A stretch of DNA of 64,000 nucleotides from Vicinamibacteria bacterium (GCA_041493035.1 JBGPYB010000001.1:22999-86998), one strand, 5' to 3'; counted from the first letter of the stretch, positions 31,510 through 63,599 are shown. Numbers and translations are program-made. Notes: generated by a model from the letters alone, not told the origin.

Positions 31510-31533
31510 GGCCACCACTCCCGCGGGGGTGTC

Positions 31534-33078
31534 GTGCCGGAAATTGACGCCGAAGGCGAGCCCCGGACAGGCGTTCTCTCCGACGCTGCCGCCATGGGCG
31601 GCGCTCGGCGCCTGAGAGCGATCTCATGGTCCCTGGAGATCGGCATCGCCCTGATCGTCGCGCTGTCCGTGATCGCCATCGGATCGGTTCATCCCTGGGC
31701 CTATGTGCCGCTGTGGATCGCCTCGCTGCTCTCGGGCGTTTTTCTGGTATTGCGCGCCGCGGCCATCCGTTCCCTGCGCCGCGTGCTCGGAGGTCGGCGC
31801 TTCGCCTTCCATCCTTCCGACCGCTGGCTTGCCCTCGACGCCCAGTCGTCCTACGGCCTGACGGGTTGGACCTTCGATCTCTCGCGACCGATCTTTCCGA
31901 GAGCCTGCCTGTTCCGCCCAGGGCTCGTGTTCTTGATTTGGGTGGCGCTCCAACTGGTGCCGCTCCCCTTCGACTGGCGACCGGTTTCGGTCTCTCCGCC
32001 CGACACGACGAGAGGCGCTCTCTTCCTCGCGACGGCGCTGCTCATCCATGTCGCGGCCGTGGCCGTGCTCGACCAGCGCGAGGCCCGGGAACGACTCCGA
32101 AGGGTTGTGGCCGTCTTGGGTTTGGCGATATCGCTGGTCGCTATCCTTCAGCTCGGGGCGGGAGCGCGGCGCATCTATGGCCTCTTCGAGCCGCAAGAGC
32201 CTGGCCTCGTCTTTGGCCCTTTCGTGAATCGAAATCACTTCGCCGGTTACATGCTCATGGTCGTGCCGACGTGTCTCGCGCTTCTCGCCCACGCGTGGCG
32301 TCGCTACGACGAAAGGGTCGGCGAGGCGCCCAACTCACGCCGGCGGCTTCTGGCGCTCACCTCGGCCCAGGGCACGGCGCTCCTCTATGCGGCGATCCCG
32401 GTGTCGGTGAGCATCTCGGCGCTCGTCGCCACGACCTCCCGGGGAGCCCTCACGGCCTTTGCGGCGAGCCTGGCCCTGGCGGCGCTGGGGCTCAGGAGGC
32501 GCGAGCGGGGAGTCCCCGTCTGGGCGATCGCCCTTGCATTCGCGGCCATGGCCGTCTCGTGGTTCGGCTTCGAGCGGCTCGAGATCCGCTTCCAGAACGC
32601 GGCCGCGGACGCTCCCGGTCGGACCCTGGTCTGGAGGGACGCCCTTCATCGTATGGACGGCCGTTGGCTCCGCGGGGCAGGCTTCAACGCCTTCGCCTCG
32701 GCGATGAGTGGCGCCACGCCCTGGGCGTTGCCCCTCGGGGCCGAGGCCTGGCCTAGCGAGATCGAGGGGGCCCGCAGGGCCGGCCGGCCGGCCGGCACCC
32801 GCGTTGCCGAGGGAGTAGCGGGCCTCACCTGGTACCGCGAAGCCCACAACGACTACCTCCAGGTGCTCGTGGAAACCGGGGTGCTAGGGCTCGCGTTGGC
32901 TCTCTGGGCCGCGGTGGAAGTTCTGGCCGCAGCCCGGCGCGACCCGTGGCTCATCATGGCGATGTCCGGTATCCTCATGCACTCCACCGTCGATTTCGAC
33001 CTCCAGATACCCGCCATCGGCGTGCTTTTTGTCGTTCTCGCGGCATCTCGGGTGCGTTCGCGACTCCCACCGTGCTAG
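31534..33078 (+). CDS. O-antigen ligase/Wzy_C-like polytopic membrane protein
   Basis: More than 10 TM segments and the periplasmic-loop motif YREAHNDYLQVLVETGVLG. The true start may be the internal Met near 31594. Confidence 0.7.
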   Translation: MPEIDAEGEPRTGVLSDAAAMGGARRLRAISWSLEIGIALIVALSVIAIGSVHPWAYVPLWIASLLSGVFLVLRAAAIRSLRRVLGGRRFAFHPSDRWLALDAQSSYGLTGWTFDLSRPIFPRACLFRPGLVFLIWVALQLVPLPFDWRPVSVSPPDTTRGALFLATALLIHVAAVAVLDQREARERLRRVVAVLGLAISLVAILQLGAGARRIYGLFEPQEPGLVFGPFVNRNHFAGYMLMVVPTCLALLAHAWRRYDERVGEAPNSRRRLLALTSAQGTALLYAAIPVSVSISALVATTSRGALTAFAASLALAALGLRRRERGVPVWAIALAFAAMAVSWFGFERLEIRFQNAAADAPGRTLVWRDALHRMDGRWLRGAGFNAFASAMSGATPWALPLGAEAWPSEIEGARRAGRPAGTRVAEGVAGLTWYREAHNDYLQVLVETGVLGLALALWAAVEVLAAARRDPWLIMAMSGILMHSTVDFDLQIPAIGVLFVVLAASRVRSRLPPC

Positions 33079-33118
33079 CCTCTTGCCCACGAAGGCGATC
33101 GCTTCCAGGAGAAACTCG

Positions 33119-33727
33119 ATGATCCGACGCCTCGCTCCCTACGTGGTTGCCCTTTGCGTGTCGACGGCCGGCGCCGCACTGGCCGACGAGGAACGGGCAG
33201 TCCCCTCGGACGAGGGGAAGCCCTGGGCGCTGGGCCTCGGTCTCGGTCTGGTGCGTTCCAACGACGAGGGAAGCCTCTACCTTTCGGCCAACCTGCGCCG
33301 ACGGATCCATTTCAGCCCCCGGCCTGACGACACACAGAGCGCCTCCACCTCCACGGAGCCGGACCAGGGGCGCCACGGTCGAGTGTACGTGGAGCCGGAG
33401 ATCGGGTACTGGAGGCGTACCTCTGACGACGGCTCGCGCGAGAAGGACCTTCTGCTCGGAGTGAACCTCGTGGGCGTTGTGCCGACCCGGGTCTTCGACC
33501 TCTTTGTGGGCGCCGGCTTTGGCGCGCATTTCTTGGACGTGGGCGTGCTTCAGAACGGAGTGGTCGCCAGCCAAACGTCGACTCGATTCGGAGCCAACAT
33601 TCAGTTTGGTGTCGAGGCCGATCTGGCTCGCAACGTGGGTATCTTTGGTCAGGGTCGCGTCGACTTGCTCGACAAGAAACCCAGCCAACAGTCCAAGGTC
33701 TGGGCGGGTCTGCGCTTCCGCTTCTAG
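33119..33727 (+). CDS. Small outer-membrane beta-barrel protein (OmpW/porin-like)
   Basis: ATG 33119 follows AGGAG. Signal peptide (VALCVSTAGAALA), alternating beta-strand pattern and a terminal aromatic residue (GLRFRF). Confidence 0.65.
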   Translation: MIRRLAPYVVALCVSTAGAALADEERAVPSDEGKPWALGLGLGLVRSNDEGSLYLSANLRRRIHFSPRPDDTQSASTSTEPDQGRHGRVYVEPEIGYWRRTSDDGSREKDLLLGVNLVGVVPTRVFDLFVGAGFGAHFLDVGVLQNGVVASQTSTRFGANIQFGVEADLARNVGIFGQGRVDLLDKKPSQQSKVWAGLRFRF

Positions 33728-34305
33728 TCGAGCAGCCGAACCTTCATCTCGACGCGCCGCCGCGGATGGCCGTCGTCACCGCCCAGCTCGCTGATCGAGT
33801 CCGCGACGGTAAGGCCGGAGACCACCTCGCCGAAGATCGTGTAGTGCCCATGAAGCGAGGGCTGATCCGTGAGGACGACGAAGAACTGGGTTCCGGAGCT
33901 GTCCTTGTTCGTCGGGCAGCGTGCGGCCACCACGGTGCCGCGAGTGAAACTTCGCTTCGAGATCTCGGCCCGCAGGGCTCCGAAGCCGCCGCGGCCGTAT
34001 TCGGCCTGTCGCGCAGGATCCTTGGAGTAGGGATCTCCCCCCTGGATGACCTGTCCGGGCAGGATGCGGTGGAACGTCGTGCCATCGTATCCGCCGCTTC
34101 GGGCCGTCTCGAGGAAATAGCGGACCTGCCCGGGGGCCAGATCCGGAAGGAGACGGATCACGAAAGATCCCACCTCCGTCTCGACGACCGCATCGGGGAC
34201 CTTTCGGGTTTCGGCCGACGCGGCCCAAACCGAAGCGGGCAGAGCCGTGAGCCCGAGGCACGCGACCAGCACCAGGGCTCCGCGCTTCGAGATCATTTCC
34301 AACAT
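33724..34305 (-). CDS. Secreted cyclophilin-type peptidyl-prolyl cis-trans isomerase
   Basis: Signal peptide followed by FHRILPGQVIQGGDP, GTQFFV and FGEVVSG motifs. The start lies 2 nt after the stop of the upstream nucleotidyltransferase gene. Confidence 0.9.
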   Translation of the reverse strand: MLEMISKRGALVLVACLGLTALPASVWAASAETRKVPDAVVETEVGSFVIRLLPDLAPGQVRYFLETARSGGYDGTTFHRILPGQVIQGGDPYSKDPARQAEYGRGGFGALRAEISKRSFTRGTVVAARCPTNKDSSGTQFFVVLTDQPSLHGHYTIFGEVVSGLTVADSISELGGDDGHPRRRVEMKVRLLD

Positions 34306-34306
34306 T

Positions 34307-35557
34307 CTAGCGTAGGCCGGCTGGGAACGTCCGCGGGCGGGCGCGAATCGCCACGCGGCTCCGAGCGGCTCTCAGCAGCCGTCGGGCGAGGTCGAAGGGT
34401 CGAGCGATGCGGAGGGCGGTCGCCCGAAGCGGCGACAAGGGCCGCCCATGAAGAGCCTCGATCTGCCCGCGTCGCGGCCAGACCGCGCCGGCCGCGTCCC
34501 GCACCCATGCGAGAGGCCAGGGAAGGAGCGAAGGTCCGCTCCCGAGAACTCGAAGCTTCAAGGCCCCGCGGTACGTCGGGTCGAGCGCGCCGGCCAGGAC
34601 ATGGGCGAGAAGCGCGTCGGCCGGCCGTCGGCCGGGGCGAAGGGGCCCAGAAAGAATGTCCCCCAGACGAAGACCCGCGCAGAGACCCCAGGCGGCTTCG
34701 GCTTCGCCAGGGCGCACGTAGGCCGATGTGAAACCCACGCCTTCCCCCCAGAGGTCCCGGTTACGTTCGTCACCGACGCCGAGGTCGAGGAGATCCGCCA
34801 GCATCCGCGTCGACGGATAGCTGCCAGGCGCAAAACCGTGCTGCGCGATACCATGGACGAGGGCGTGGGCCGCGAGCACGGCGGGAGTCGGAACGGAGAC
34901 ATCGCCAGGGAGGTTCGGGAGGCGCTGGAGCAGCCCTCGCCGACGAAGGCTCAGGGCACTGGCGAACTCCCGTTCGCCTGGGATCCGCACGCCCGGCAAG
35001 AAGCGGTGGACGTCCACGTTCTCGCCAGGACGCCGTTGGAGCGGAGGGAGCTGGTGTTCACACGGCGGCCCGCCCTGGTCCGAGCGGAAGCCCCGCTGCC
35101 GGAGGGCCTCGGCAACCACGCCGAGGTGAGCCTCGTCCACGAGAAAGTCCACGTCGCTGGCCGACCGCGCATGAAGCTCAGTACGTCCCGTGAGATGAAG
35201 CGCCATTCCCTTCAGGACAACAAGCGGCACTCCCGCCTCCGCAGCGCAGGAAGCCGCTTCCCGGCACACCTCCAGGAGACGCTCGTTGTCGAGAGCGGCA
35301 ACGCCCTGGGCCGCGACCAGGGCGCGCGCTCCATGAGGGCCGGCCTCCGCTTCGAGGCGCGGCCGAGGGGTCCGCGCCGCGATACGGGGCGCCAGGTCGA
35401 GGCGCCGTGCGAGCGCGGCCCCCTCCTCGGAGATCGCCGCGAACGCTCGCGCGTCCAGGGGGCTGAAAGCCCGGAGCAGGACCCAGGCTATCTCTTTGGA
35501 AACAACGACTTCCGGCGGACGGAACCGAAGCCCTCCAGGCACGTTTGCCTCAGGCAT
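34307..35557 (-). CDS. PF14907-like (NTP_transf_5) uncharacterised nucleotidyltransferase
   Basis: VVLKGMALHLTG...RSASDVDFLVDE core, typical of the family. 416 aa. Divergent from the C25 peptidase gene. Confidence 0.75.
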   Translation of the reverse strand: MPEANVPGGLRFRPPEVVVSKEIAWVLLRAFSPLDARAFAAISEEGAALARRLDLAPRIAARTPRPRLEAEAGPHGARALVAAQGVAALDNERLLEVCREAASCAAEAGVPLVVLKGMALHLTGRTELHARSASDVDFLVDEAHLGVVAEALRQRGFRSDQGGPPCEHQLPPLQRRPGENVDVHRFLPGVRIPGEREFASALSLRRRGLLQRLPNLPGDVSVPTPAVLAAHALVHGIAQHGFAPGSYPSTRMLADLLDLGVGDERNRDLWGEGVGFTSAYVRPGEAEAAWGLCAGLRLGDILSGPLRPGRRPADALLAHVLAGALDPTYRGALKLRVLGSGPSLLPWPLAWVRDAAGAVWPRRGQIEALHGRPLSPLRATALRIARPFDLARRLLRAARSRVAIRARPRTFPAGLR

Positions 35558-35638
35558 CGCCCTAGCTTATCATTGAGGATCTTGGCTCCCTCCAGAGCTT
35601 GGGGCCGGGGCCTCCCCGCTGCCCTTGGGAAGTGTGCA

Positions 35639-38600
35639 ATGCGGGGAATGGTTCCGAAACTCAAAGTCGCGGCCGCAGCTCTTCTCTTGGTCCTCGTTTC
35701 GCCGGCCTCTGGACGCGCGGGCAGCACCCTCACGACCGCCCCCTACACTCCGAACGGCAACCAGTCCGGCACCGCCAACGGCGACTACGTGAGCGAGGAC
35801 GCGGCCGGAGGAGGCCTGAACTTGCCCTACCACTTCTGGGTCGAGGTCCCGCCCGGGCTGGGCCGCCTCGTGGTGGACATCTGGGACGCCGACATCGGGG
35901 CCGGGGGTGCGGGCGAGGCGGCCGCGGGCCGCGATCGCGCGCGCAGCGTCTTCGACGTGAACGCGGTCTACACCCTCCTCGATCCAACGGGCGCTACCCG
36001 AGCGACGGTGAACGGCACCAATGCTCTGCCGGCATTGGCCGACAACGCGTGGTTCAACCTCTTCAATTCGGTGGTGGGTCTGACCGCCGGGCACTGGGAG
36101 GTTCGAATCGACCAGTCGACGCTCGTCGACGTGGCCGGCAACCGCGACGCCATCAACGCTTTCGGCGTTCGCGCCCACGACGGCACCGCTGGCGCCGGTG
36201 GGACCGAACTGAATGTGTACTACGATTCCATCACCGACGTCGGCGTCAACCCGCCCGCTGTGGCGGGGCTGATCAACACGAGGACCTACGTCGAGTACCC
36301 CTACATCGTCTCGGGCTGCTCGTTCTTCGAGAACGACTTCGACTTCGACACCAACAACGCGACCGGTCAGTCGATCGTCTACGCCAGCCGTACCCCGGCG
36401 ACTTCCGCTGCCTTCAGCCAGACCCTCGCCAATGCCACCCTCTCAGTGAACGATGTCTGGAATCGAGACGCCATCGCGGGCTGGACCAGCGACTCGAGGT
36501 CCACCGAGTACGGGATCTGGTCGCAGACCACCACCATGCGTTCGTATGTCGTTGGTGGCGCGAACAACGGCAACTACGGCAACCTCTACGTCGCCAACTT
36601 CCAGGCGGTCGCGGGCGCCCCGATCGCGAACCCGCCCGCGAACTCGTTCCGCACCTACATTGCCACCGACGCCGGTGGCGCCCCCGTGAAGCCCTATCTC
36701 GAGCAGTTTCTGGGGTATCTGTCGGGGCCACGGACCCCGACGGTGGGGCAGACCACGGTCTTCACGGTCACCGTACGTGTCGTCAACCCGACGCTCCTTC
36801 CCATCGCCTTTGGCGCTCCGGCCGCCGACATCGTGACGGCGAACGTGCTGAGACCCGTGGGCTCGTTGGGCTATCAGGGCGGCGCCCAGGTCACCCAAGG
36901 GACCATCCTCTCGGAGCCTGCCATCGGCGGAACCGGGAACGTGACCTGGAACCCTGGCCCGGTCGCCGCGGGTGCCACCGCGTTCCTCGCCTTCAACGTG
37001 GCCGTCACCCCCACCATGGCCGGCCAGAGGATTCCGGTCACGAACACGCCTGTTTCGGGGAACGGCACCCGCGCCACCTTCGTCGACGAAACCGGCAACA
37101 CCACACAGGCGCGCGCCACCTTCACCCTCGGGCCCGTCTGCGATCTCGCGGTGAACCTGGCCCTCGCCACCCCCGCCGTGGTGTCGTCCCTCCGCGCCCA
37201 CGACGGGCCGCGTGGTGTCGAGGTGGAGTGGGAGACGGCCTCCGAGGTCGGCACCGCCGGATTCGATCTCCTTCGGTGGGACCCCGAGACCGACGGCTAC
37301 GTGACGCTCAACAAGGGGTTGCTCCCGGGCCTCCAGGGCTCTCCTCAAGGGGGGCGGTATCGTTTCGTCGACGAGGGCGCGTCCGCCTCCGCCAAGCTCT
37401 GGTACGTCCTCTCGGAAGCCACGGCTTCGGGTGAGCGGCGCTTCCACGGTCCGTACGAGGTCCAGGTCGAGACAGCGTCCCCCTCAGCGTCGCTCCGCTC
37501 TCACTCGGCCGACGGCTACGATCGCACGGCTCGACGCCGCCCCGCCTCGCAACGAGCGGCCCGGGTGGCGTCGGCCCTGACGACTCTCCCGCTGGCGGCC
37601 CCCGTGGCCGGCGCCACCGCGGTCAAGATCGGCGTCGAGAAGGACGGCCTCTACTACGTTTCGGCGACCTCGATCGCCGCGGCCCTGGGCTGGCCCGCGG
37701 CGCAGGTCGGGGCCTTCCTGTCCACGCAGCGATTCGCGCTGTCCTCGCAAGGGAGGCCCGTGGCCTGGACGCCGTCTTCCGGCGGCCTCCTCTTCTACGG
37801 GCGCGGCGTCGACAGCATCTATACCCGCGACAACGTCTACTGGCTCGGGGTCGGCCACGGGACGATGATGACCACCGCCGACGGCCGCCGTCCGTCGCCG
37901 ACGGGGCCGGCGAGCTTCCTGGACCAGGTCCACGCAGAGGAGAACCGTCTGCCCGCCACGGCGGTCTCGACCGACCCGGAGTCCGACTATTGGTACTGGG
38001 ACTACCTGAGCGGCGGTCATCCCACCTACGGAAGCAGGAGCTTCCCCCTCGCCGCCGTCGCCGTGGATCATGGTGGCGCGCCGGCCCGGCTGACCATCCA
38101 TCTGCACGGGGCCACCACGACGGCCGTCACCGGCGAGCACCACGTCGTCGCACGGCTCAACGGAAGCCCCATCGGCGAGGTGCAGTGGGAAGGGGTCGTT
38201 CCAGCCACCATCGACGTGCCGGTGGGCGCATCGATGGTCCAGGAGGGACAGAACAGCGTGGAACTGGACGCGCTCCTGGACACCGCAGCGCCTTACAGCA
38301 TCGTCTACCTCGACAGCTTCGATCTCACATACCCACGACTCTATCAGGCCGCCGGCTCGGCGCTGTCGTTCCGCGGCGACGGTCATGGCGTCGTGACGGT
38401 CGCCGGGTTCCCGGATCCGGCCATCGGCGTCTTCGACGTGACTGACCCCGCGAACACTCACCGAGTGGCGCGGACCACCGTGACCGGCGCTCCCGGCGCC
38501 TTCCAGGTGAGCCTCGTCCCGGCCGGTCCGGACACTCGCTACGTCGCATCGACTCCGGCGGGCTGGCTCGCGCCGAAATGGATCCGGTCGTATCGCTCGG

Positions 38601-39733
38601 CCGGGCTCAAGTCGCGGCGGGGCGGGGCCGACTACATCGTGCTGACCACCTCCGACCTCATGGCGCCGGCTCGGCGCCTCGCTGCAATGCGCCAGAGGCA
38701 GGGGCTCGTCACTGCGGTGGTGGACGTGGCCGACGTCATGGACGAGTTCGACGCCGGGATCTCGACCCCGCACGCGGTGCAGGCTTTCCTGCGCTGGGCC
38801 GCGGCGCACTGGTCCCCGGCGCCCCGCTCCCTGCTCCTGGCCGGACTCGGCACCCTCGACTACAAGGATTACCTGGGCAACGGCGGCAACCTGCTTCCGC
38901 CCCTCATGGTGTCGACGCCATTCGGGCTCTTCGCCTCTGACAACGACCTCGTGGATCTGGACGGCGACGGCCTGCCCGATCTCGCCGTGGGCCGCGTGCC
39001 CGCCGTCACCGCCGCCGAGCTCGACGCCTACGTCTCCAAGATCGCCGCCTACGAAGCGTCGGACGGTGCCGACTGGAAGGGCCGCGCGGTCTGGGCCTCG
39101 GACAAGGTCGATCCCGGAGCGGACTTCCCGGCCGATGCAGAACGCCTCGTGTCGGGGCTTCCGACAGGGTACTCGGCCGACCGAGTGTACCTGGCCCCGG
39201 GCACTATCACCGCGAGCCGCGCGCAGCTCCTGGGAGACCTCCAGAGCGGGGCCGGCATCATGAACTACGTCGGCCACGGTGGCATCGATCGCCTGGCCGC
39301 CGAAGGACTGCTCGTTTCGACCGATGCCTCGTCCCTCACCAACGCCGAGCGCCTCCCGCTTCTCACGGCCCTGACGTGCACGATCAACCGTTTCGAGGTC
39401 CCGGGCTACGCGTCCCTCGGAGGGGAGCTGGTCAAGAGCCCGTCGGGAGGGTTCTCGGCGGTCTGGGCGCCCACCGGCCTTTCGCTGAACGCGGAGGCGA
39501 ACGCCCTGGGGGCACGCTTCTACGCCACTCTGGCCGGGAAACCCGGGAGCCGGGTCGGAGACCTCGTGAACGATACGCTGCGGGCCTATGCCGCCAGCGG
39601 CGACGAGCCGAGTCTCGTCAGCGTGTACAATCTCCTTGGCGATCCGGCGCTCGTCATGAAGCCGCCGGCATCCCCCGCGAGCCCGCCGCCGAGTGGCGAG
39701 CGGTCGCAGGGGTCGCTTCGACGGACCGAGTGA
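35639..39733 (+). CDS. Large secreted multidomain protein with C-terminal peptidase C25 (gingipain-like) domain
   Basis: Start at ATG 35639 (or 35648), followed by a signal peptide (KLKVAAAALLLVLVSPASG). The C25 region has ADYIVLTTSDL, a His motif (NYVGHGG) and a Cys motif (LLTALTCTIN). The 5' extension of the listed ORF (34448..) is antisense to the PF14907 gene and is rejected. Confidence 0.8.
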   Translation: MRGMVPKLKVAAAALLLVLVSPASGRAGSTLTTAPYTPNGNQSGTANGDYVSEDAAGGGLNLPYHFWVEVPPGLGRLVVDIWDADIGAGGAGEAAAGRDRARSVFDVNAVYTLLDPTGATRATVNGTNALPALADNAWFNLFNSVVGLTAGHWEVRIDQSTLVDVAGNRDAINAFGVRAHDGTAGAGGTELNVYYDSITDVGVNPPAVAGLINTRTYVEYPYIVSGCSFFENDFDFDTNNATGQSIVYASRTPATSAAFSQTLANATLSVNDVWNRDAIAGWTSDSRSTEYGIWSQTTTMRSYVVGGANNGNYGNLYVANFQAVAGAPIANPPANSFRTYIATDAGGAPVKPYLEQFLGYLSGPRTPTVGQTTVFTVTVRVVNPTLLPIAFGAPAADIVTANVLRPVGSLGYQGGAQVTQGTILSEPAIGGTGNVTWNPGPVAAGATAFLAFNVAVTPTMAGQRIPVTNTPVSGNGTRATFVDETGNTTQARATFTLGPVCDLAVNLALATPAVVSSLRAHDGPRGVEVEWETASEVGTAGFDLLRWDPETDGYVTLNKGLLPGLQGSPQGGRYRFVDEGASASAKLWYVLSEATASGERRFHGPYEVQVETASPSASLRSHSADGYDRTARRRPASQRAARVASALTTLPLAAPVAGATAVKIGVEKDGLYYVSATSIAAALGWPAAQVGAFLSTQRFALSSQGRPVAWTPSSGGLLFYGRGVDSIYTRDNVYWLGVGHGTMMTTADGRRPSPTGPASFLDQVHAEENRLPATAVSTDPESDYWYWDYLSGGHPTYGSRSFPLAAVAVDHGGAPARLTIHLHGATTTAVTGEHHVVARLNGSPIGEVQWEGVVPATIDVPVGASMVQEGQNSVELDALLDTAAPYSIVYLDSFDLTYPRLYQAAGSALSFRGDGHGVVTVAGFPDPAIGVFDVTDPANTHRVARTTVTGAPGAFQVSLVPAGPDTRYVASTPAGWLAPKWIRSYRSAGLKSRRGGADYIVLTTSDLMAPARRLAAMRQRQGLVTAVVDVADVMDEFDAGISTPHAVQAFLRWAAAHWSPAPRSLLLAGLGTLDYKDYLGNGGNLLPPLMVSTPFGLFASDNDLVDLDGDGLPDLAVGRVPAVTAAELDAYVSKIAAYEASDGADWKGRAVWASDKVDPGADFPADAERLVSGLPTGYSADRVYLAPGTITASRAQLLGDLQSGAGIMNYVGHGGIDRLAAEGLLVSTDASSLTNAERLPLLTALTCTINRFEVPGYASLGGELVKSPSGGFSAVWAPTGLSLNAEANALGARFYATLAGKPGSRVGDLVNDTLRAYAASGDEPSLVSVYNLLGDPALVMKPPASPASPPPSGERSQGSLRRTE

Positions 39734-39738
39734 GGGGC

Positions 39739-39903
39739 ATGGAACCACGAGACAACTCGAACGTCCCCCCGCCCGGCGGAAAGAAGCCCTACGAGCCTCC
39801 ACAGATAGTGAGCCGCGAGCCCCTCGAAGCTGTCGCCGCCGTCTGCTCGCCCCCCGGCAAGGCGAACCCTGGGGCGTGCCCCACGGGTCCACTCAACTCG
39901 TAG
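39739..39903 (+). CDS. Candidate 54-aa RiPP precursor-like peptide (unlisted small ORF)
   Basis: The ATG lies 5 nt after the C25 stop, with GAGG just upstream. Sequence: MEPRDNSNVPPPGGKKPYEPPQIVSREPLEAVAAVCSPPGKANPGACPTGPLNS. 13 Pro, 2 Cys, C-terminal Ser. Its stop is 3 nt from the stop of the convergent radical SAM gene. Confidence 0.4.
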   Translation: MEPRDNSNVPPPGGKKPYEPPQIVSREPLEAVAAVCSPPGKANPGACPTGPLNS

Positions 39904-39906
39904 GGT

Positions 39907-41010
39907 TCAGCGCCCAACGCCCGGAAGCACGCGGAGCGGGATCGCCTTCCGCCCCTGCCCCGCCTCGCGGGCGAGTGTCGCGCGCTGCCGGGCGCCTGGA
40001 TAGATCACTAGAGGGCTACCCGAGAGCGCCTCCGCCGTCCCGGGGCAGAAGGCGAGGAGGGGCCCGGCTTCCCCCTCTTTTCCGACGACGCCCTTCACTT
40101 CGGCGGAGAGTTCCCGCACTTCTTGAAGGCGCGGCGATCGTTCCCAGATCTCGCGGATCGACGAGTCGTGGAGGTTCCCCACGGCCCGCCGCCACTGGAC
40201 GCAGGGATACACGTTGCCGAAGGGGTCGACAGTGATTCCGGATGAACCCGCGCCGCAGTGCTTGCCGGCCTCCGCAGGTGCCATCAGCGCGTCAGCCTGA
40301 CGGCCCACCTCGGGAGCACTCCCGCCACCGAAGCGCGCGTACTCGAGGCGAAGGAGGTTGAGGACACCGTCGCGCGACGCCGTCAGCTCGAGGGGGCTCC
40401 GGTCGCCGTTGTCGCGGGGTGTCACCTCGGGGTCGAACTGCAACCGGACGCCGAGCCCGTCGGCGATGGCGAACATCCCCTCCACCTCGCCTTCGTTCCA
40501 CGCCGTCAGGGTCGCGTTCATCTTCACCCGCAGACCCAGGGCCACCATCCCGCCCACGTTTCGGAGGAGTCGCTCGAAGCTGCCGGCCACCCGAGTCTGC
40601 CGGTCGTGACTTCCCGCCTGCGACCCGTGGAGGCTCACCTCGACCATGTACGGATCCACTTCGTCCTTGAGCCGCCGCGCGGCCTCGCCGCTCAAGGCGT
40701 GGCCGTTGGACTTGACCCGGACGACGAAGCCGAGCTCTCTCGCTCGCTTCCCCAGGCGCAGGAAGTCCGGATGGGCCAGAGGCTCTCCCCCGGACAGGGT
40801 GAGGTTCAGTACCTCCAATTCCCTCAGATCCTCGAAGAAGCGGATCCATTCCTCCGCGGACATGGGGACGCCGGCGAGGCCGAGGTCGTTGTAACAGAAG
40901 ACGCAGTCGAGGTTGCAGCGGTACGTCAGCTCCACGAGGACGGAAAAGAGAACGTTCTCCCGCCACGTCCTTTGGACGAGACCGGCGAAGCTCGCAGCTT
41001 CAGGAGGCAT
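39907..41010 (-). CDS. Radical SAM enzyme with C-terminal SPASM/twitch-like domain
   Basis: CNLDCVFCYN (CX3CX2C), GGEP, and C-terminal HCGAGSSGITVDPFGNVYPCVQW...GNL...IREIW. Only three C-terminal Cys are seen, so it is twitch-like. Confidence 0.85.
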   Translation of the reverse strand: MPPEAASFAGLVQRTWRENVLFSVLVELTYRCNLDCVFCYNDLGLAGVPMSAEEWIRFFEDLRELEVLNLTLSGGEPLAHPDFLRLGKRARELGFVVRVKSNGHALSGEAARRLKDEVDPYMVEVSLHGSQAGSHDRQTRVAGSFERLLRNVGGMVALGLRVKMNATLTAWNEGEVEGMFAIADGLGVRLQFDPEVTPRDNGDRSPLELTASRDGVLNLLRLEYARFGGGSAPEVGRQADALMAPAEAGKHCGAGSSGITVDPFGNVYPCVQWRRAVGNLHDSSIREIWERSPRLQEVRELSAEVKGVVGKEGEAGPLLAFCPGTAEALSGSPLVIYPGARQRATLAREAGQGRKAIPLRVLPGVGR

Positions 41011-41293
41011 CGGCTGCCCCCACGCTCTCGATCACGCCGCCCGCCGCCAGCTCCTCGATGAAAGCCGCGACGTCGCTCTCGAGCCTCTTCGGTTCGACCT
41101 CGTATTCTTCTGCGAGACCGGCCACGAGGGTCACCATGTTCTCTCCCGAATCGATGCGCTCGAGGATCCGCGCACCGACCTCGTTGAGCACAAGGACCTC
41201 CGGTCCCGATTGGCGCACGACGATCGCCTCGGGCGCGATGATCCGAAAGCGGACATCGTCCTTTCGACGGAAGACCGCTTCGCCCGGAATCAA
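41000..41293 (-). CDS. PqqD family protein (RRE-type peptide chaperone)
   Basis: VFRRKDDVRFRIIAPEAIVVRQSGPEVLVLNEVGARILERIDSGENMVTLVAGLAEEYEVEPKRLESDVAAFIEELAAGGVI. The TTG start overlaps the kinase stop (TTGA). Its 3' end overlaps the rSAM start by 11 nt. Confidence 0.75.
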   Translation of the reverse strand: MIPGEAVFRRKDDVRFRIIAPEAIVVRQSGPEVLVLNEVGARILERIDSGENMVTLVAGLAEEYEVEPKRLESDVAAFIEELAAGGVIESVGAADAS

Positions 41294-42210
41294 GCGACCA
41301 CCGCTTCCGGAGCGAGTCGGTCCCAGACAGGCGCACCGAGGGCGATTGTGGCCGTGTGTCGCCGGCAGCCGGCGAGGAGCGCTTCGAGGTTCCGGAGCAG
41401 GGGCTCGAGTCGATGCCGATCCTGATTCACGAAGGGAGCGGCGGCGAGCATAGTGGCGAGTCCTTCGGCGGGGGAGAGAGGATCGAGGCGCGTCGCGCTC
41501 CCCTGACGAAGCTTGCAGATGGCCGTCAGACGGGGCCGCTCCGTCCCCAGCCCGCGGTGGTCTCCGGCGAAGGGGACGGGCGCCACGATGCACCTGTTGC
41601 CTTCCAGCACCACGGCGTTCAGGTCGTCGCTCAGCACCGATCGCCCTTCGTCCAGGCTGAGCCGAGCGAGGGTGCTCTTACCCGCCCCCGAGCGCCCCAG
41701 GAAGAGCCACGCGCCGTCCTCAGCCACGATGCCGGCGCTGTGGAGCAGCGCTCCGCCGACTTCGAGCAAACGATACGACACGATAGCGCGAAGGACGTTC
41801 TCGATGGCTCCGGCGAAGCCCGCTCCCGTCGCCGCCGTCCAGAACGCTGCCCGCAACGCCGGGCGCCACTCCAGACGGGCCATGAGGCCGAGTCCCGCGA
41901 TGCGCACCGAGTCCGGGGTCGGATCGAGGTCGAGGGTGAACTCCCACCCGCGCACGTCGAAGGTCGAGAACTCGTCGTCGACCACCCGCATGGCGTGGCA
42001 GTCCACGGCTCCGGCGACAGGGGCCCCGGCAGGCAGACAGAAGCCCGAGAAGTGCCCGCGCGCCAGGGCTTCCTGTTCGGCGCCCAAGCCTCGAAAGACA
42101 TAGGGCCCGCCCGCGAGGTCAAGGGCGAGGGTCCTCTCTCCCCACGGCTCCCCGGCCAGGCGAGCCGGGAAGAGATCGGGGTTCCGAAAAAACCGATCTC
42201 CGAAGCTCAT
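41290..42210 (-). CDS. HPr kinase/phosphorylase-like P-loop kinase (HprK-related)
   Basis: Internal ATG 42210 (MSFGDRFF...). LHSAGIVAEDGAWLFLGRSGAGKSTLA followed by SDD. There is an ATGA overlap with the upstream gene. Confidence 0.75.
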   Translation of the reverse strand: MSFGDRFFRNPDLFPARLAGEPWGERTLALDLAGGPYVFRGLGAEQEALARGHFSGFCLPAGAPVAGAVDCHAMRVVDDEFSTFDVRGWEFTLDLDPTPDSVRIAGLGLMARLEWRPALRAAFWTAATGAGFAGAIENVLRAIVSYRLLEVGGALLHSAGIVAEDGAWLFLGRSGAGKSTLARLSLDEGRSVLSDDLNAVVLEGNRCIVAPVPFAGDHRGLGTERPRLTAICKLRQGSATRLDPLSPAEGLATMLAAAPFVNQDRHRLEPLLRNLEALLAGCRRHTATIALGAPVWDRLAPEAVVA

Positions 42211-42596
42211 CGTCCCCGTGACTGGAGGCGCCACAGGAGATGTTGCGCCAGGCGCCCTGCCGCGCGGCACCGCTCCATGAGGCTGACGGGCATCACGACG
42301 CGGCCGAGGACGAGCCGAGGCGCCACCGGGGCGTCGGGATGAGACGCGCCATCCGCCTGGGTCCAGAGGCGAAACCCGCGGCGTCCCGGGCGATATCCGA
42401 TGACCCTGTGGGCCACGAGACGTCCTGCCTCGCTCACGAAGGCCACGACGTCTCCCGGCCAATAGACGGACGCGGGCGTCAAGGCTACGAGCGTATCGTC
42501 CTCCAGACGGGGGCTCATGCAGTCACCGCTGACGCGGACCCGCAACCCCTCCGCAGCGGCCAGCGAGCGGAGCGGTGCCACCAAACGGGGCGTCAT
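42207..42596 (-). CDS. Soluble S24/S26 (SipW/Sec11-type) signal-peptidase-like protein with Cys at the nucleophile position
   Basis: 129 aa from ATG 42596. VSGDCMSPRL (compare SGSMEP), GDVVAF, VAHRVIG (compare HRV) and WTQADGASHPDAPV...LGRVV (compare TKGDNN..D). No TM anchor. ATGA overlaps on both sides. Confidence 0.6.
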   Translation of the reverse strand: MTPRLVAPLRSLAAAEGLRVRVSGDCMSPRLEDDTLVALTPASVYWPGDVVAFVSEAGRLVAHRVIGYRPGRRGFRLWTQADGASHPDAPVAPRLVLGRVVMPVSLMERCRAAGRLAQHLLWRLQSRGR

Positions 42597-44782
42597 TGAA
42601 TCGTCGCGGTCTTCCCGGCGGTGGCGCCAGTCTCCCTGTGAGAATAGTCCCCATAGTAGTGGCCGTAGTAGTGGCCGTAATAGTAGGAGTGCTTTTCGAT
42701 TTGGGCGCGGTTCAAGACGATCCCCAGGATGCGCGCGCCGGTCTCGGAGATGCGCTCCAGGGTAAAGCGCACAGCCTTGCGGGGAACCATCTCGGCGCCG
42801 GCCACGACGATGACGCCGTCGGCGAACGAGGCCAGGCTCAAGGCGTCCGCCACGGCGCCCATGGGCGGCGTGTCGATCAAGATCCAGTTGTAGAGCCCCT
42901 TGAGGCTTCCCAGGAAGCCGCGCATCCCCTCGTCGGTCATCAGGTCGGCGGGGCTCGGCGCGTGAGTCCCGGACGGAAGGAAGCTCAGGTTGGGCCCCTT
43001 CACGTGCTGGATCGCCTCGAGGGGCTCGCATTTGCCCACGAGGATGTCGGAAAGACCGGGGGTCTTGCGGGCCCTGAGGATCGTGTGGGCGGTCGGCTTG
43101 CGGAGGTCGCCGTCGATGAGGAGCACGTTGCCGTCGAGGGCGGCGAGTGTCGACGCCAGGTTGACCGAGGTCAGGGTCTTTCCCTCTCCGGGGGCTGTCG
43201 AAGTCACGATGAGGACGCGCGGCGAGCGATCGGGCCACGAGTAACGAAGCGCCGTGCGCACGATCCGGTATCCCTCCGAGAAGGGGCCCGGAACGTTGGA
43301 GTTGACGCCCACGACTCTTCCGGCCTTCTTGTCGATCACCTCCGGGACGACGCCCAGGAGGGGGGCGCCCAGGTGTCGACGCACGTCGTCGGGTGTGCGC
43401 AGCGTGTTGTCGAGATACTCGAGAAAGAACGCGAGACCGATGCCAAGCCCCAGTCCCAACAGGAGGCCGTTCAGGATGTCGCGCATCTTCTTTGGACGCA
43501 CCGGCCCGCCTGGGATCACCGCCGCGTCGAGGATACGGATGTTCGTGGCCTTCAGTTCCTGGGCCACGTCGGTTTCCTTGTGGCGCGACAGGAGGCTGCT
43601 CAGGACGCCCTTGGCCGCCTCTAGCTCCCGCTTCCGTGTGTCGTAGGGTATCGCCCGCTGCTCCAGATCGAGGAGCTCGGCCTTCGTGGTTTCCAGGGCC
43701 TCAGAGATGCTCGCTTCCTTGGCCGCCGCCCCACGGTACTCGCTCTCCATTCCCCTTATCACCCGCTGAGCCTCGCGCTTGACTCTCTCGCGCATCTGGC
43801 GGATCTGCCCGCGGACTGTGACGACCTCGGGGTGCTGGTCGAGGTACGTATCGAGGAGCTGGGCCTCACGTCGCTCGAGGTTCGAGATCTCGAGAAGGTC
43901 GGCCTGGACGATGGGATTCCTCGTCACGTCGGGAAGCTCTTCGGGGTGGGAGGCCTTCCGGATCTGCTCGAAGACCGCCTGCTTTTCCAGGCGCTCCGTC
44001 TTCAGCTCGTTCAGCGCCGAGCCGAGCTGCGTGAGCTTCTGGTTCAGCAGTGTGCGGCGCTCTTCGATGTTGACGATGCCTTGTTTCTCCCGGACTTTCT
44101 CGAGGGCAAGCTCGGCCGCTTCGACTTTCTTGCGTTGGTCGTCGACCTGACCTCCCAGCCACTGCCCCGCCTCGGCCGAGGTCTGGTACCGGAGATCGAG
44201 AGCCTGCTCGATGTAGAGCTGCGAGAGGCGATTGGCGAGGCGGGCTGCGAGTTCGGAGCGAAAGGCTTCGGCACTCACGGCAACCACGCGGCTGTTCTTC
44301 GCGGGGCTCACGGAGATGCGCCCGAGGAAGGCGTCGATCATGCCTTCCATGGCCGGCAATTCTCCCGGCGGGGCGGCCAGCATCTCCTTGATTTGCTCAG
44401 GCTTCCGGGGCCCGCCGAACTCGGGATCGTCGAGGAGCCTCATGTCCTCGATGACCCGGCGGGCCAGGGCGCGGCTCTGGAGGATCTTGTACTGCGTTTC
44501 GAAGTATTCCTCTCCCCACCAGCCGGCGTTGACTTCGGAAACCTCCTTGAAGGCGATGACGCTCGGAGCTTGTCGCTCGATCAAGAGCTGGGCTGTGCCG
44601 CTGAAGACCGGACGCATGAGGTTGGTGCGGACGGTTGCGTGCACCGTCACCGCAAGGAAAATGGCCACGATCAGCCAGCGCCGCCGGACCAGGACGTGGA
44701 GATACTCCCAAAGCGCGGTCTCTGTCGAGGGATCAGTCTCCGAGCGGAGTCGCTGTTCGACCTCGGAGGAGGAGTCGATCAT
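42593..44782 (-). CDS. Polysaccharide co-polymerase / BY-kinase (Wzc/GumC-like tyrosine autokinase)
   Basis: Start at ATG 44782, after GGAAGG. Wzz-like N-terminal domain with 2 TM and a coiled coil. Kinase domain (SPRVLIVTSTAPGEGKT, LLIDGDLRKP, ILIDTPP). C-terminal Tyr cluster HSYYYGHYYGHYYGDY. Confidence 0.85.
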   Translation of the reverse strand: MIDSSSEVEQRLRSETDPSTETALWEYLHVLVRRRWLIVAIFLAVTVHATVRTNLMRPVFSGTAQLLIERQAPSVIAFKEVSEVNAGWWGEEYFETQYKILQSRALARRVIEDMRLLDDPEFGGPRKPEQIKEMLAAPPGELPAMEGMIDAFLGRISVSPAKNSRVVAVSAEAFRSELAARLANRLSQLYIEQALDLRYQTSAEAGQWLGGQVDDQRKKVEAAELALEKVREKQGIVNIEERRTLLNQKLTQLGSALNELKTERLEKQAVFEQIRKASHPEELPDVTRNPIVQADLLEISNLERREAQLLDTYLDQHPEVVTVRGQIRQMRERVKREAQRVIRGMESEYRGAAAKEASISEALETTKAELLDLEQRAIPYDTRKRELEAAKGVLSSLLSRHKETDVAQELKATNIRILDAAVIPGGPVRPKKMRDILNGLLLGLGLGIGLAFFLEYLDNTLRTPDDVRRHLGAPLLGVVPEVIDKKAGRVVGVNSNVPGPFSEGYRIVRTALRYSWPDRSPRVLIVTSTAPGEGKTLTSVNLASTLAALDGNVLLIDGDLRKPTAHTILRARKTPGLSDILVGKCEPLEAIQHVKGPNLSFLPSGTHAPSPADLMTDEGMRGFLGSLKGLYNWILIDTPPMGAVADALSLASFADGVIVVAGAEMVPRKAVRFTLERISETGARILGIVLNRAQIEKHSYYYGHYYGHYYGDYSHRETGATAGKTATIQ

Positions 44783-44894: not shown

Positions 44895-44970
44895 GGGCCT
44901 GTAGTTCAGCGGTCAGAACATCCGGCTCATAACCGGACAGTCGAAGGTTCGAATCCTTCCAGGCCCACCA
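44895..44970 (+). tRNA. tRNA with CAT anticodon (elongator Met type, or Ile2 if lysidinylated), encoded CCA
   Basis: Hand-folded cloverleaf: acceptor GGGCCTG/CAGGCCC, D arm GTTC-AGCGGTCA-GAAC, anticodon arm TCCGG-CTCATAA-CCGGA, T arm GAAGG-TTCGAAT-CCTTC, discriminator A, CCA. There is no initiator-type 3xGC anticodon stem and no 1:72 mismatch. Confidence 0.9.
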
Positions 44971-45003: not shown

Positions 45004-45843
45004 TCAGAGGTCTACGGTCGCGAACATTCCCCCGGACGCCCAACGACGGAACCAGGCGAACAGGTCGTCTTCCTTTGGAGCGCGCCGACCGCCGCGCTTC
45101 AGGGCGGTGGCGGTGGCCGCGCCGAGGGGCTGACCGGAAGAAAGGTCTCTCAGGAGGTCATGTTCGGGACGTGTGAGGTCCAGCCTCCAGACGGAGTAGT
45201 CGTGGCGATATACGGCGGCCCATGAGCTCCGGACTCTCGGCTTGGGGTGGTCGTGGTCGTCGTCGCGGACCGTCTGCAAATAGGCGTTGACGGGATAGCG
45301 GAACGAGAGCAACTCGAAGCCTGGGACCGTGCGGAGACGCGCGCCCTCCCAGGCGGCTTCCGGGATCGCCGCCAGAGCCGCTTCCGAAAGCGGCGGCATC
45401 TCTGGAGCGTCGAACACCCGGGCGACGGCCCGCTCGAGCCGCGCCAGGTCGACCGAGAAGCCACGCCGCCTGATCCCGGAAGCCGTCTCGAGAAACTCCG
45501 GGAGATGGTCGCCGAGTCGATTCAGGCTGTAGCTTCGGGAGGGATGCTGCTTCACGTAGTCGCGGACGAGATCGATGAAACCGCGGTCCCCCAGGAAGTG
45601 CTTCAGGGCCTCGTAGTCGCCCGCCAGGCAATCGTGCATCCGCAGCAGGTACATGTCGTGGTAGACACCCACCCGCTCGACCGGGGAAAGCGTGGGGGAC
45701 GGCAGGATCACCTCCCCAAGCGCCTCCGCCGGGACCTCCCGCTGGGCGTCCGGAGAGGCAACGGCCTCGTCCGTCGTCCCCGGGTGTACGACGACGGCCT
45801 GCATCCAGCGCTGGAGGCCGTCGAGGGGAGTTTCAAGCGCCAT
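45004..45843 (-). CDS. DUF2063 protein (MbnC/BufC/HvfC-like partner of MNIO enzymes)
   Basis: Internal ATG 45843 (MALETPLDGLQRWMQAVVVHP...). VGVYHDMYLLRMHDCLAGDYEALKHFLGD is typical of DUF2063. It overlaps the DUF692 stop by 11 nt. Confidence 0.75.
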   Translation of the reverse strand: MALETPLDGLQRWMQAVVVHPGTTDEAVASPDAQREVPAEALGEVILPSPTLSPVERVGVYHDMYLLRMHDCLAGDYEALKHFLGDRGFIDLVRDYVKQHPSRSYSLNRLGDHLPEFLETASGIRRRGFSVDLARLERAVARVFDAPEMPPLSEAALAAIPEAAWEGARLRTVPGFELLSFRYPVNAYLQTVRDDDHDHPKPRVRSSWAAVYRHDYSVWRLDLTRPEHDLLRDLSSGQPLGAATATALKRGGRRAPKEDDLFAWFRRWASGGMFATVDL

Positions 45844-46687
45844 GGGTGGGAGCGGCGACCTCGGGCTCCTCGCGCCATGCGCGGGCCTTGAGCGCCTCGG
45901 AATGGACGACCTCCAGCTCCGGAATGTTTTCGTCCCATTCGTAGAGGGTCGCTGTGGCCCCCGTTCGGGCCCAGGCCCTGCGATAGAGCGTCCACACGGC
46001 TTCGATGGCGTGGTCGGAGTGGGTGTCGATGATGTGTGTCCCCTTATTGGTGTGGCCCGCAACGTGGTATTGGACCACGCGGTCCGCCGGGACCCTGTCG
46101 ATGTAGACGTCCGGGTCGAACCCGTGGTTGAAGGAGCTGACGTAAACGTTGTTCACGTCGAGGAGCAAGCCGCAGTCGGCGTCCTCGGCGAGGCGCGACA
46201 GAAATTCCCACTCGGGCATCGTCGACGCCACGAACTCGACGTACGACGACGGGTTCTCGAGAACCAGCGGCCGCTCGAGGAAATCCGAGACCTGCTTCAC
46301 CCTTTCGACCGTATGGCTGAGCGCCTCTTCGGTGTAAGGCATGGGGAGAAGATCGTGCGTGTTCCGCCCCAGGATTCCCGTCCAGCAGAGGTGGTCGGAG
46401 ACCCAGTGAGCCCGCGTCCGCTTCGCCAGGTCTTTGAGGTTCTGGAGGTGCTCACGGTTCAGCGGGTCCTTGTTTCCGATCCCGAGGGAAACGCCGTGGA
46501 GCGCCACCGGGTATCGCTCGGCCACCTGGTCGAGGATGTGCATCGGGCGGCCCCCGGTGTTCATGAAGTTCTCGGAAAGAACCTCGAACCAGTCGACGGG
46601 CGGGTTCTTGCCGAGGATGTGGCCGAAATGGACGGTACGGAGACCGATCCCGATGCCGAGATCCGGAAGTCTCCACCGATTGCTCAT
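45833..46687 (-). CDS. DUF692 multinuclear non-heme iron oxidase (MNIO; MbnB/BufB/HvfB-like)
   Basis: GIGIGLRTVHFGHIL..VDWFEVLSENFM..HGVSLGIG...WVSDHLCW...LENPSSY...VVQYHVAGH, covering the full family signature. Confidence 0.9.
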   Translation of the reverse strand: MSNRWRLPDLGIGIGLRTVHFGHILGKNPPVDWFEVLSENFMNTGGRPMHILDQVAERYPVALHGVSLGIGNKDPLNREHLQNLKDLAKRTRAHWVSDHLCWTGILGRNTHDLLPMPYTEEALSHTVERVKQVSDFLERPLVLENPSSYVEFVASTMPEWEFLSRLAEDADCGLLLDVNNVYVSSFNHGFDPDVYIDRVPADRVVQYHVAGHTNKGTHIIDTHSDHAIEAVWTLYRRAWARTGATATLYEWDENIPELEVVHSEALKARAWREEPEVAAPTHGA

Positions 46688-46705
46688 GGGGCTTCGTTCA
46701 GAGTT

Positions 46706-46734: not shown

Positions 46735-46747
46735 GGAAGACCGAGAC

Positions 46748-63566: not shown

Positions 63567-63599
63567 GGGGCGCAGGGTACGGGGAATCGCCCCGACCGG

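Follow-up and report, generated by a model that had tools for sequence, protein, structure and literature searches.

A conserved radical SAM, PqqD and ScmC-type kinase locus in a Vicinamibacteria bacterium and a 54-residue open reading frame as its candidate precursor peptide

The closest described relative of the gene set considered here is the SynChlorMet (SCM) cassette, which we take to comprise ScmC, the PqqD-like ScmD and the radical S-adenosylmethionine (SAM)/SPASM proteins ScmE and ScmF, and to be bioinformatically defined, with its precursor unidentified. A second point of reference is the tailoring of phosphorylated lasso peptides, in which the C-terminal Ser of the precursor is phosphorylated by HprK-like kinases and PsmN adds a hexose to the phosphate (PMC6993621). 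For the lasso-peptide kinase BsfK, mutagenesis indicates that the motif residues matter, the target is Ser3, and a PqqD-type recognition element speeds up phosphorylation (PMC10368454). Here we describe a locus at positions 34,307 to 44,782 of a 64,000-nucleotide stretch of DNA from a Vicinamibacteria bacterium (GCA_041493035.1 JBGPYB010000001.1:22999-86998); the whole of this stretch is referred to below as the window. The locus is best read as a variant of radical-SAM/PqqD biosynthesis of peptides that are ribosomally synthesized and then modified post-translationally (RiPPs), related to SynChlorMet. We give a probability of about 0.6 to its being the biosynthetic locus of a widely conserved RiPP, with a 54-amino-acid (aa) open reading frame (ORF) as the precursor. 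No description of this gene system was found in full-text literature searches.

Genes were taken from an ORF listing and their junctions were read directly in the sequence. The gene list, coordinates, strand arms, overlaps and the 5-nt and 3-nt gaps given in an initial annotation of this DNA were all reproduced. The genes of the locus are as follows.

34307..35557, minus strand: PsmN-like PF14907 enzyme of the nucleotidyltransferase fold, transcribed divergently from C25 (PF14907, 58.9 bits against a cutoff of 31.2)
35639..39733, plus strand: C25 cysteine peptidase, secreted, PorU-like, 1364 aa (PF01364, E=3.8e-72)
39739..39903, plus strand: candidate precursor peptide gene, 54 aa (homologues and alignment)
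39907..41010, minus strand: radical SAM maturase, putative, with a reduced SPASM (twitch-like) domain (PF04055 and PF13186)
41000..41293, minus strand: PqqD-family protein, putative leader-binding RiPP recognition element (RRE), TTG start (PF05402, E=9.7e-15)
41290..42210, minus strand: ScmC-family P-loop protein, putative peptide kinase of the phosphoenolpyruvate carboxykinase (PEPCK)/HprK fold, 306 aa (PF27840 ScmC)
42207..42596, minus strand: soluble peptidase of the Sec11/SipW type (S26B) in which Cys replaces the nucleophilic Ser, 129 aa, candidate leader peptidase (profile and Foldseek)
42593..44782, minus strand: bacterial tyrosine kinase (BY-kinase), Wzc-like polysaccharide co-polymerase, translationally coupled by ATGA (Wzz, GNVR, AAA_31)

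From the BY-kinase gene to the radical SAM gene, the minus-strand chain is joined by ATGA, ATGA and TTGA junctions and an 11-nt overlap. On the plus strand, the peptide ORF starts 5 nt past the C25 stop, and its own stop is separated by 3 nt (39904-39906) from that of the convergent radical SAM gene. No terminator-like hairpin was found between these two genes (39901-39909). With the stops 3 nt apart and no hairpin, the two transcripts must overlap or end within the opposing gene, and antisense coupling between them could occur. Each gene of the locus has a coding-type composition rich in GC at third codon positions (GC3), in a window of ~68% GC. The modifying enzymes have no membrane segments; the C25 protein has a signal-like segment. 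In family searches, the Pfam matches were weak for two small proteins, the signal-peptidase I-like and the HprK/PEPCK-like one.

Comparison with its homologues indicates that the 54-aa ORF is a genuine gene under purifying selection. Among 5.8 billion proteins searched, 50 small called proteins, 51-72 aa long, matched the peptide (best E=1.5e-17), and a scan with the homologue alignment placed the peptide in 80 further metagenome loci. More than 80 homologues share K(K/R)PYxxPR(I/V)xxREPLEAVAAVC..K.NPG.CP.GPISS, and the alignment consists of a variable N-terminus followed by K(K/R)PYExPRILSREPLEAVAAVCSP..PPAKANPGxCPSGPISS. The window peptide is built in the same way, with a variable N-terminus, a leader KKPYEPPQIVSREPLEAVA and a core AVCSPPGKANPGACPTGPLNS that ends in an invariant Ser; the leader stretch that is a candidate for PqqD binding is KKPYEPPQIVSREPLE. 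Ten columns are invariant (P21, R26, E27, P28, L29, E30, A33, C36, K41 and S54) and C47 is nearly so. A conserved small ORF ending in Ser was a feature whose absence from homologous loci would have counted against the initial annotation, and a C-terminal Ser was found in 82/82 complete copies (71 SS, 5 NS, 5 AS and 1 LS). DNA differences from the window copy fall at codon positions 1/2/3 in the ratio 331/243/888, and 651 of the 1079 codons that differ from it are synonymous. Two residues before the first Cys is a small-x-small site formed by A31, conserved to at least 90%, and the invariant A33. The core, (A)VCSP..PPAKANPGxCPSGPISS, contains no Asp or Glu, and leader position -2 is V, M or A. 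The near-invariance of this core suggests a fixed physiological role, as an envelope component, a cofactor-like molecule or a signal, rather than that of a diversifying antibiotic. The gene is single-copy in the window. Automated annotation often misses this precursor family; in the public protein collection, the contig of the window has no call for this gene, and the 50 called homologues come from elsewhere.

The radical SAM enzyme contains exactly six Cys residues, C32, C36, C39, C252, C270 and C322, each invariant in 47/47 homologues and arranged as a CX3CX2C motif plus three C-terminal Cys. Since there are only three C-terminal Cys, the enzyme would hold one auxiliary cluster with three protein ligands, a twitch-like arrangement. 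Together with the PF04055 and PF13186 matches, these residues bear out its first description as a radical SAM/SPASM twitch-like enzyme. Its best solved relative is PqqE (6c8v). It scored below every NCBIfam family cutoff, with the sactipeptide maturase StsB among the matches. The features by which a radical SAM maturase is recognized, a cluster motif, an auxiliary-Cys domain, a PqqD partner and an adjacent Cys-containing precursor, are all present. Placement in a non-peptide radical SAM family was a further outcome that would have spoken against a peptide maturase; no cutoff of such a family was reached, and the gene adjoins those for PqqD and a Cys-containing peptide. A sulfatase maturase (anaerobic sulfatase-maturating enzyme, anSME) or a cofactor-type enzyme was accordingly rejected as the primary reading, as no cutoff was reached and the gene always occurs with PqqD and the peptide. 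The C-S-P of the core lacks the Arg that presumably belongs to the sulfatase motif. The PqqD protein reached PF05402 and scored 32 bits against the lasso-specific NF033536 and NF033530, whose cutoffs are 80 and 70. The system resembles sactipeptide and ranthipeptide maturation in its CX3CX2C motif with an auxiliary domain, its PqqD-type RRE and its two conserved Cys in a short core. It is unlike that maturation in having three auxiliary Cys, in reaching no cutoff, in its near-invariant core, and in the additional kinase, nucleotidyltransferase and glycan-machinery partners.

The kinase has more than 500 homologues, and its family forms 516 clusters at 50% identity (E<=1e-30); the named sources of the homologues are mostly Thermoanaerobaculia/Acidobacteria assemblies from soil. 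These homologues carry Pfam PF27840 (ScmC), a match that is weak for the window kinase and unmarked in the precomputed annotation of the homologues; TIGR04249 gave no match at E<=0.01. An AlphaFold2 (AF2) model of the window kinase (predicted local distance difference test, pLDDT, 89) was matched by Foldseek to PEPCK and to HPr kinase/phosphorylase (HprK/P). Invariant residues are H157, G172, G175, G177, K178 and D195; S179 and T180 are invariant or nearly so and D196 is near-invariant. The resulting motif, H-x14-G-x2-G-x-G-K-[ST]-x15-D-D, has a spacing identical to that of BsfK (H148-G163-G166-G168-K169-S170-D186-D187). Both the catalytic motif and the fold of HprK/PEPCK-fold RiPP kinases were thus found, and by analogy the enzyme would phosphorylate the peptide. 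The description of this protein as HprK-like therefore stands for the fold and fails for the family, which by its Pfam match is PF27840 ScmC, with TIGR04352 scoring 17.2 bits against a cutoff of 200. Membership in the HPr-rel-A system was rejected on this score and on that of PqqD (22.2 bits against 35 for TIGR04353). The likeness to the HPr-rel-A trio drawn initially did not survive these scores, and the ScmC/PqqD/radical SAM core resembles SynChlorMet instead.

The order of a protein matched by Pfam to ScmC, then PqqD, then a PqqE-like radical SAM/SPASM enzyme is shared with SynChlorMet. Unlike SynChlorMet, the present locus has one radical SAM enzyme instead of two and a SPASM domain reduced to three Cys. 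Its proteins fall well below the SynChlorMet cutoffs (ScmE, 84 against 400 bits; ScmF, 69 against 400; ScmD, 16.8 against 100), a candidate precursor is identified, and a Sec11-like Cys peptidase, a tetratricopeptide repeat (TPR) protein, a Wzy_C protein, the PF14907 enzyme and C25 are additional conserved members. The phosphorylated-lasso tailoring enzymes (PadeK/PsmK/BsfK, PsmN/BsfN and the B1 PqqD) are matched in the HprK/PEPCK fold and motif spacing, the PF14907 protein with its DxD, a PqqD that is discrete and recognized by PF05402, and a precursor ending in Ser. The present system differs from them in having no cyclase, no B2 protease and no acidic acceptor, and in having a radical SAM enzyme as the putative macrocyclizing enzyme.

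The small peptidase matched SEC11C and SEC11A first in profile searches (SEC11C, E=2.6e-5). Its AF2 model (pLDDT 88) likewise gave SEC11C/A as top Foldseek matches, followed by LexA and SpsB. The Sec11 Ser aligns with Cys26 (GxCMxP), a position where 28/31 members have Cys and the other 3/31 Ser, while His63 (HRV), Asp82 and Asp88 are present in 31/31. The protein has no hydrophobic segment and scored 29.7 bits against a TIGR02228 cutoff of 51.85. With no membrane anchor and only 129 aa, it is predicted to be cytoplasmic. The S26B fold and the His/Asp partners are therefore present, and the Ser nucleophile and membrane anchor are absent. From its alignment and model, the protein is read as a soluble Cys/His/Asp version of S26B signal peptidase, in agreement with its first description as a Cys-variant, soluble signal-peptidase-like protein. 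It is like the S26B signal peptidases I (Sec11/SipW/archaeal) in fold and in the motif order GxSMxP, HRV, GDxxxxxD, and the peptide offers an A-x-A site. It is unlike them in its Cys nucleophile, its missing membrane anchor and its position inside a RiPP operon.

In the PF14907 enzyme, which passed the gathering score, D135-x-D137 is conserved in 14/15 sequences. A DxD motif is required for PsmN, the enzyme that hexosylates the C-terminal phospho-Ser of pseudomycoidin (PMC6993621). The C25 protein has a hydrophobic N-terminal signal-like segment, and the C25 domain lies at its extreme C-terminus, where H1213 and C1247 are invariant in 35 homologues. Its only PDB match is PorU (6za2), the sortase of the type IX secretion system (T9SS), and it scored 194.8 bits against the NF033707 cutoff of 420 over NF033707 positions 171-736. 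It is thus like PorU, the only solved relative, in matching beyond the catalytic domain and in keeping the catalytic His and Cys, and unlike PorU in its score below cutoff, in its lineage (apparently Acidobacteria-relative) and in lacking a C-terminal sorting domain. No T9SS genes were seen in the window, where the other T9SS components were not specifically searched for. In several loci, ~1000-aa secreted DUF7948/SBBP-repeat/DUF11 proteins are encoded next to C25 (L008:2-2923 and L045:6731-9730), and these are possible substrates of the PorU-like enzyme. Alignments of homologues showed that catalytic residues are kept in each enzyme, namely the radical SAM enzyme, the kinase, the PF14907 enzyme, the peptidase and C25.

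Co-conservation was assessed in the 16 metagenome loci that were anchored on the peptide and extended at least 5 kb to either side of it, with flanks limited to 10 kb. Partners in peptide-anchored loci were counted with the window proteins as tblastn queries and by Pfam; this targeted search was used because all-against-all ORF clustering of the long loci was swamped by GC-rich shadow ORFs. The radical SAM gene beside the peptide and PqqD were each present in 16/16 long loci, the ScmC-type kinase in 15/16 and the Cys-variant Sec11-like peptidase in 14/16. C25 occurred in 10/16 (within 9 kb) and the PF14907 nucleotidyltransferase in 9/16. The gene set is therefore co-conserved outside its source genome, an outcome that favors the initial annotation, and it was found again in dozens of independent contigs. 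The convergent peptide/radical SAM arrangement is kept in 40/61 loci, and C25 lies directly upstream of the peptide on the same strand in 28/63.

The same operon was seen on contigs with precomputed Pfam annotation. The usual order is PF14907, Wzy_C, a small TPR protein, peptidase, ScmC, PqqD and radical SAM, facing the peptide gene. Beyond the peptide gene in this arrangement lie C25 and a Bac_transf phosphoglycosyl transferase, and upstream of the operon there are often Wzz/BY-kinase, Poly_export and a second Wzy_C. Wzy_C and TPR, two conserved partners that had not been named before, were each found in 24 loci. This Wzy_C, an O-antigen-ligase-like protein placed between the nucleotidyltransferase and TPR-peptidase genes, is different from the Wzy_C protein of the window. 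In one genome, PF14907 and Wzy_C are fused in a single 858-aa protein (L003:6556-9132), which by Rosetta-stone logic hints at a joint action. Near the loci there are also genes for Bac_transf, Poly_export and Wzz proteins. The steady coupling to Wzy_C, TPR, polysaccharide genes and the PorU-like enzyme, together with the near-invariant core, argues for an envelope location of the product, within it or at its surface. No ABC exporter or immunity gene was found within the conserved gene set of the annotated relatives. The Wzy_C coupling also recalls the TfpO/PilO and PglL O-oligosaccharyltransferases, since the gene for a membrane protein with a Wzy_C domain is coupled to that for a substrate whose C-terminal Ser is invariant. 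In Pseudomonas aeruginosa 1244, TfpO reportedly glycosylates pilin at its C-terminal Ser. Here only the Pfam domain is shared, and the substrate would be a small peptide modified in the cytoplasm.

The window belongs to a sub-clade with two metagenome loci (L001 and L011), in which a Wzy_C protein (at 31510-33078 in the window), an outer-membrane-protein-like gene and the nucleotidyltransferase are arranged as in the window. The window PF14907 protein is the ortholog (42% identity) of the first nucleotidyltransferase of the main-clade operon. In the window and L001, the BY-kinase stands at the operon head in place of Wzy_C-TPR. The window BY-kinase has the periplasmic Wzz/GNVR domain, the P-loop kinase and the Tyr cluster of Wzc-like proteins (PF02706, PF13807 and PF13614; TIGR01007, 161.5 bits against a cutoff of 108; C-terminal Tyr cluster YYYGHYYGHYYGDY). 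Among relatives, a BY-kinase is adjacent in three loci (L001, L021 and L055) and a few kb off in three others (L003, L088 and L090). Neither it nor the cyclophilin, which has a signal-like N-terminus and was found in L001 only, occurred in any of the 16 long loci (0/16 each), and both were rejected as components of the system. Of the locus membership first proposed, the enzyme core is thus retained, and the BY-kinase and cyclophilin become clade-specific neighbors. The cyclophilin, listed initially alongside the nucleotidyltransferase, is a separate gene and there is no fusion. The remaining features of this region are the following.

31510..33078, plus strand: Wzy_C (O-antigen ligase/polymerase-like) membrane protein, associated (PF04932)
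32888..33727, plus strand: outer-membrane beta-barrel-like protein, clade-specific neighbor (PF13505, weak; limits stop-to-stop, start not fixed)
33724..34305, minus strand: cyclophilin-type prolyl isomerase, secreted, clade-specific neighbor (PF00160, E=3e-33)
35545..35573, plus strand: weak match to a sigma-70-like promoter, in the intergenic region of the divergent pair, upstream of the C25 gene (one site, 0.5 expected in shuffles)

Two other gene sets touch on this system. In an Anaerolineales bacterium, a member of another phylum (UBA6128; L004:7862-14079), PqqD, a radical SAM enzyme with a full SPASM domain, a 53-aa precursor, a ScmC-like protein and a 1180-aa C25 protein are encoded together. 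This was the only distant locus among the matches listed in a scan of genome contigs with the kinase alignment, whose pattern is a generic P-loop. The presence of C25 beside this set suggests that the C25 association is older than the acidobacterial family. A ParA/BY-kinase-like ATPase is encoded nearby. In many relatives, the peptide gene and C25 are separated by a second module (L088:13132-17648; also L090, L022, L027, L037, L039, L040 and L069). It contains a ~494-aa secreted protein, a conserved 25-aa ORF, M(V/K)KKAYRKPSLRRLGLLRQVTRFSF, a lasso-like PqqD, a lasso B2 protease (NF033537, 55.6 bits against 33), an HprK_rel_A-like kinase and a second PF14907 enzyme. The 25-aa ORF has a perfect lasso-type leader motif, YxxPxLx3Gx5T, with only ~3 residues (FSF) after it, and it may be the substrate type of HPr-rel-A-like systems, a tiny phosphorylated or decorated peptide. 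No cyclase was found in this module in the relatives, and the module is absent from the window.

Under the reading of the locus as a RiPP pathway, PqqD would bind the conserved leader (K/R)PYxxPx(I/V)xxREPLE and hand the peptide to the radical SAM enzyme, where C36 and/or C47 would most likely form thioether bridges. The ScmC-type kinase, assisted by PqqD, would phosphorylate the peptide, the likeliest target being the C-terminal Ser, as in paeninodin and pseudomycoidin. The PF14907 enzyme would then place a sugar or a nucleotide-derived group on the Ser phosphate. The Sec11-like Cys/His/Asp peptidase may remove the leader after A33 (A31-x-A33), before the first Cys. The product would pass to the envelope glycan machinery, represented by the Wzy_C ligase-like protein, the TPR protein and, in the window, the coupled BY-kinase as well. 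Outside the cytoplasm, it would meet the secreted PorU-like C25 enzyme that is encoded directly upstream of the peptide gene. By analogy with the described systems, the product is thus probably thioether-bridged, phosphorylated or glycosylated at its C-terminal Ser, and passed to the envelope glycan and PorU-like machinery. The distinct class of modified peptide proposed for this DNA is upheld as a RiPP cluster, counted here as a variant of the radical-SAM/PqqD RiPPs and kin to SynChlorMet.

Several points weigh against this reading. The chemistry is inferred, none of it observed, and the products of radical SAM enzymes are not predictable by sequence. Characterized RiPP kinases can act on other residues, as BsfK does on Ser3, and the Anaerolineales precursor (MEKKQAYQKPELRKVRLDVKTSVLNVCNTSMVNVEPMNQCQTMIGGCWYAVTG) has three Cys and ends in Gly, so that a C-terminal Ser is not universal to ScmC systems. 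The conserved set has no exporter to bring a cytoplasmic product to Wzy_C or C25. The C25 and PF14907 genes are frequent, not universal, within the available flanks, and the BY-kinase coupling is limited to the window's clade. The proposed A-x-A cleavage site follows from signal-peptidase rules alone.

Two alternatives concern whether this is the system it appears to be. The first would make the 54-codon ORF a non-coding artefact of a GC-rich genome in chance juxtaposition with its neighbors. DNA of ~68% GC yields many spurious ORFs and this one was left uncalled, but homologues down to E=1.5e-17, ten invariant columns, the third-position bias (888 against 331 and 243) and a position beside the same enzymes kept in dozens of contigs effectively refute it. 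The other, which we consider very improbable, would make the locus a cluster for a lasso peptide, with a cyclase that escaped notice or is encoded at another site of the genome. Lasso peptides that are phosphorylated typically come with a PqqD, an HprK-fold kinase and PF14907, a YxxPx(I/V) element is present in the leader, and relatives carry a lasso B2 protein nearby. Against this, no Asn_synthase (PF00733) or Transglut_core3 (PF13471/NF033537) match was found in ~50 ORFs of the window, in keeping with the initial statement that lasso cyclase and B2 protease are missing. The cyclase is also absent from the Pfam-annotated relatives, and the B2 protein of L088 found nothing in the window when used as a tblastn query; B2 occurs only in the separate neighboring module of some relatives, which has its own 25-aa precursor and also no cyclase. 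As the conserved core has no Asp or Glu to act as acceptor at positions 7-9, a lasso macrolactam cannot form. Lasso peptide biosynthesis was rejected on these grounds, together with the absence of a Thr at leader position -2.

The other alternatives accept the modified peptide and differ about its use. It might be an ordinary secreted radical-SAM peptide, a sactipeptide- or ranthipeptide-like bacteriocin or signal, with incidental polysaccharide and C25 neighbors. A radical SAM/SPASM-type enzyme, PqqD, a Cys-containing precursor and a protease are the usual contents of such clusters, and the BY-kinase and cyclophilin adjacency is not conserved. This is nevertheless unlikely, given a core that is almost invariant across more than 80 loci, unlike those of diversifying antimicrobials, a conserved set without ABC exporter or immunity gene, and Wzy_C and TPR in the same operon in 24 loci, with the PF14907-Wzy_C fusion in one genome. 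Rather improbable, too, is a role of the peptide like that of QhpC, in which it would belong to the secreted C25 enzyme as a small cross-linked subunit or as a partner that bears a cofactor. QhpC is a small peptide of quinohemoprotein amine dehydrogenase in which thioethers are formed by a radical SAM/SPASM enzyme, followed by processing, export and enzyme assembly. The 5-nt distance from the C25 stop on the same strand, the 28/63 loci with C25 directly upstream, a near-invariant core that fits a structural partner and the C25 gene beside the distant Anaerolineales set with its different precursor all agree with such a role. Yet 6/16 long loci have no C25 in their flanks, a whole extra module separates it from the peptide in several relatives, no exporter is present, and the kinase, PF14907, Wzy_C and TPR proteins are left unexplained. 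We likewise give only a slim chance to the peptide being an envelope linker or primer, a covalent adaptor between proteins and polysaccharide instead of a free natural product. PorU of type IX secretion links its cargo to a sugar of anionic lipopolysaccharide (A-LPS) that bears an amino acid. As a linker, the Ser phosphate made by ScmC and extended by PF14907 would carry a glycan as undecaprenyl phosphate does, the Wzy_C ligase would join the peptide to surface polysaccharide, and the PorU-like C25 would attach secreted proteins through nucleophilic attack by a free amine of the peptide, either Lys41, which is invariant, or the new N-terminus.

Elsewhere in the window, a second, unrelated RiPP-type pair was found beyond the BY-kinase and a tRNA-Met gene (44895-44970, plus strand). 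It consists of a multinuclear nonheme iron-dependent oxidative enzyme (MNIO; DUF692/MbnB-TglH-ChrH) at 45833-46747 on the minus strand (E=1e-106) and a DUF2063 partner at 45007-46062 on the same strand, and it is conserved in L001. Pairing of MNIO and DUF2063 is typical of bufferin-like systems, and a small precursor ORF is expected upstream of the pair, at ~46750-47000. Two long, GC3-rich ORFs of the window, at 60420-63599 (minus strand, 1060 aa) and 11027-12730 (minus strand, 568 aa), had no Pfam match at E<=1e-4.

These results assign a concrete candidate precursor to an orphan ScmC/PqqD/radical-SAM type of cassette and propose a cytoplasmic Sec11-like enzyme with a Cys nucleophile as its leader peptidase. 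They also link peptide phosphorylation and PF14907 decoration, so far known from lasso peptides alone, to a radical SAM enzyme, to O-antigen-ligase-like proteins and to a PorU-like protease. The breadth of the family, with 516 kinase clusters and named members mostly from soil Acidobacteria including Thermoanaerobaculia, points to a common and unstudied trait of an abundant, poorly cultured phylum. If the envelope link holds true, the product would be a RiPP that serves cell-surface assembly rather than warfare or signaling.

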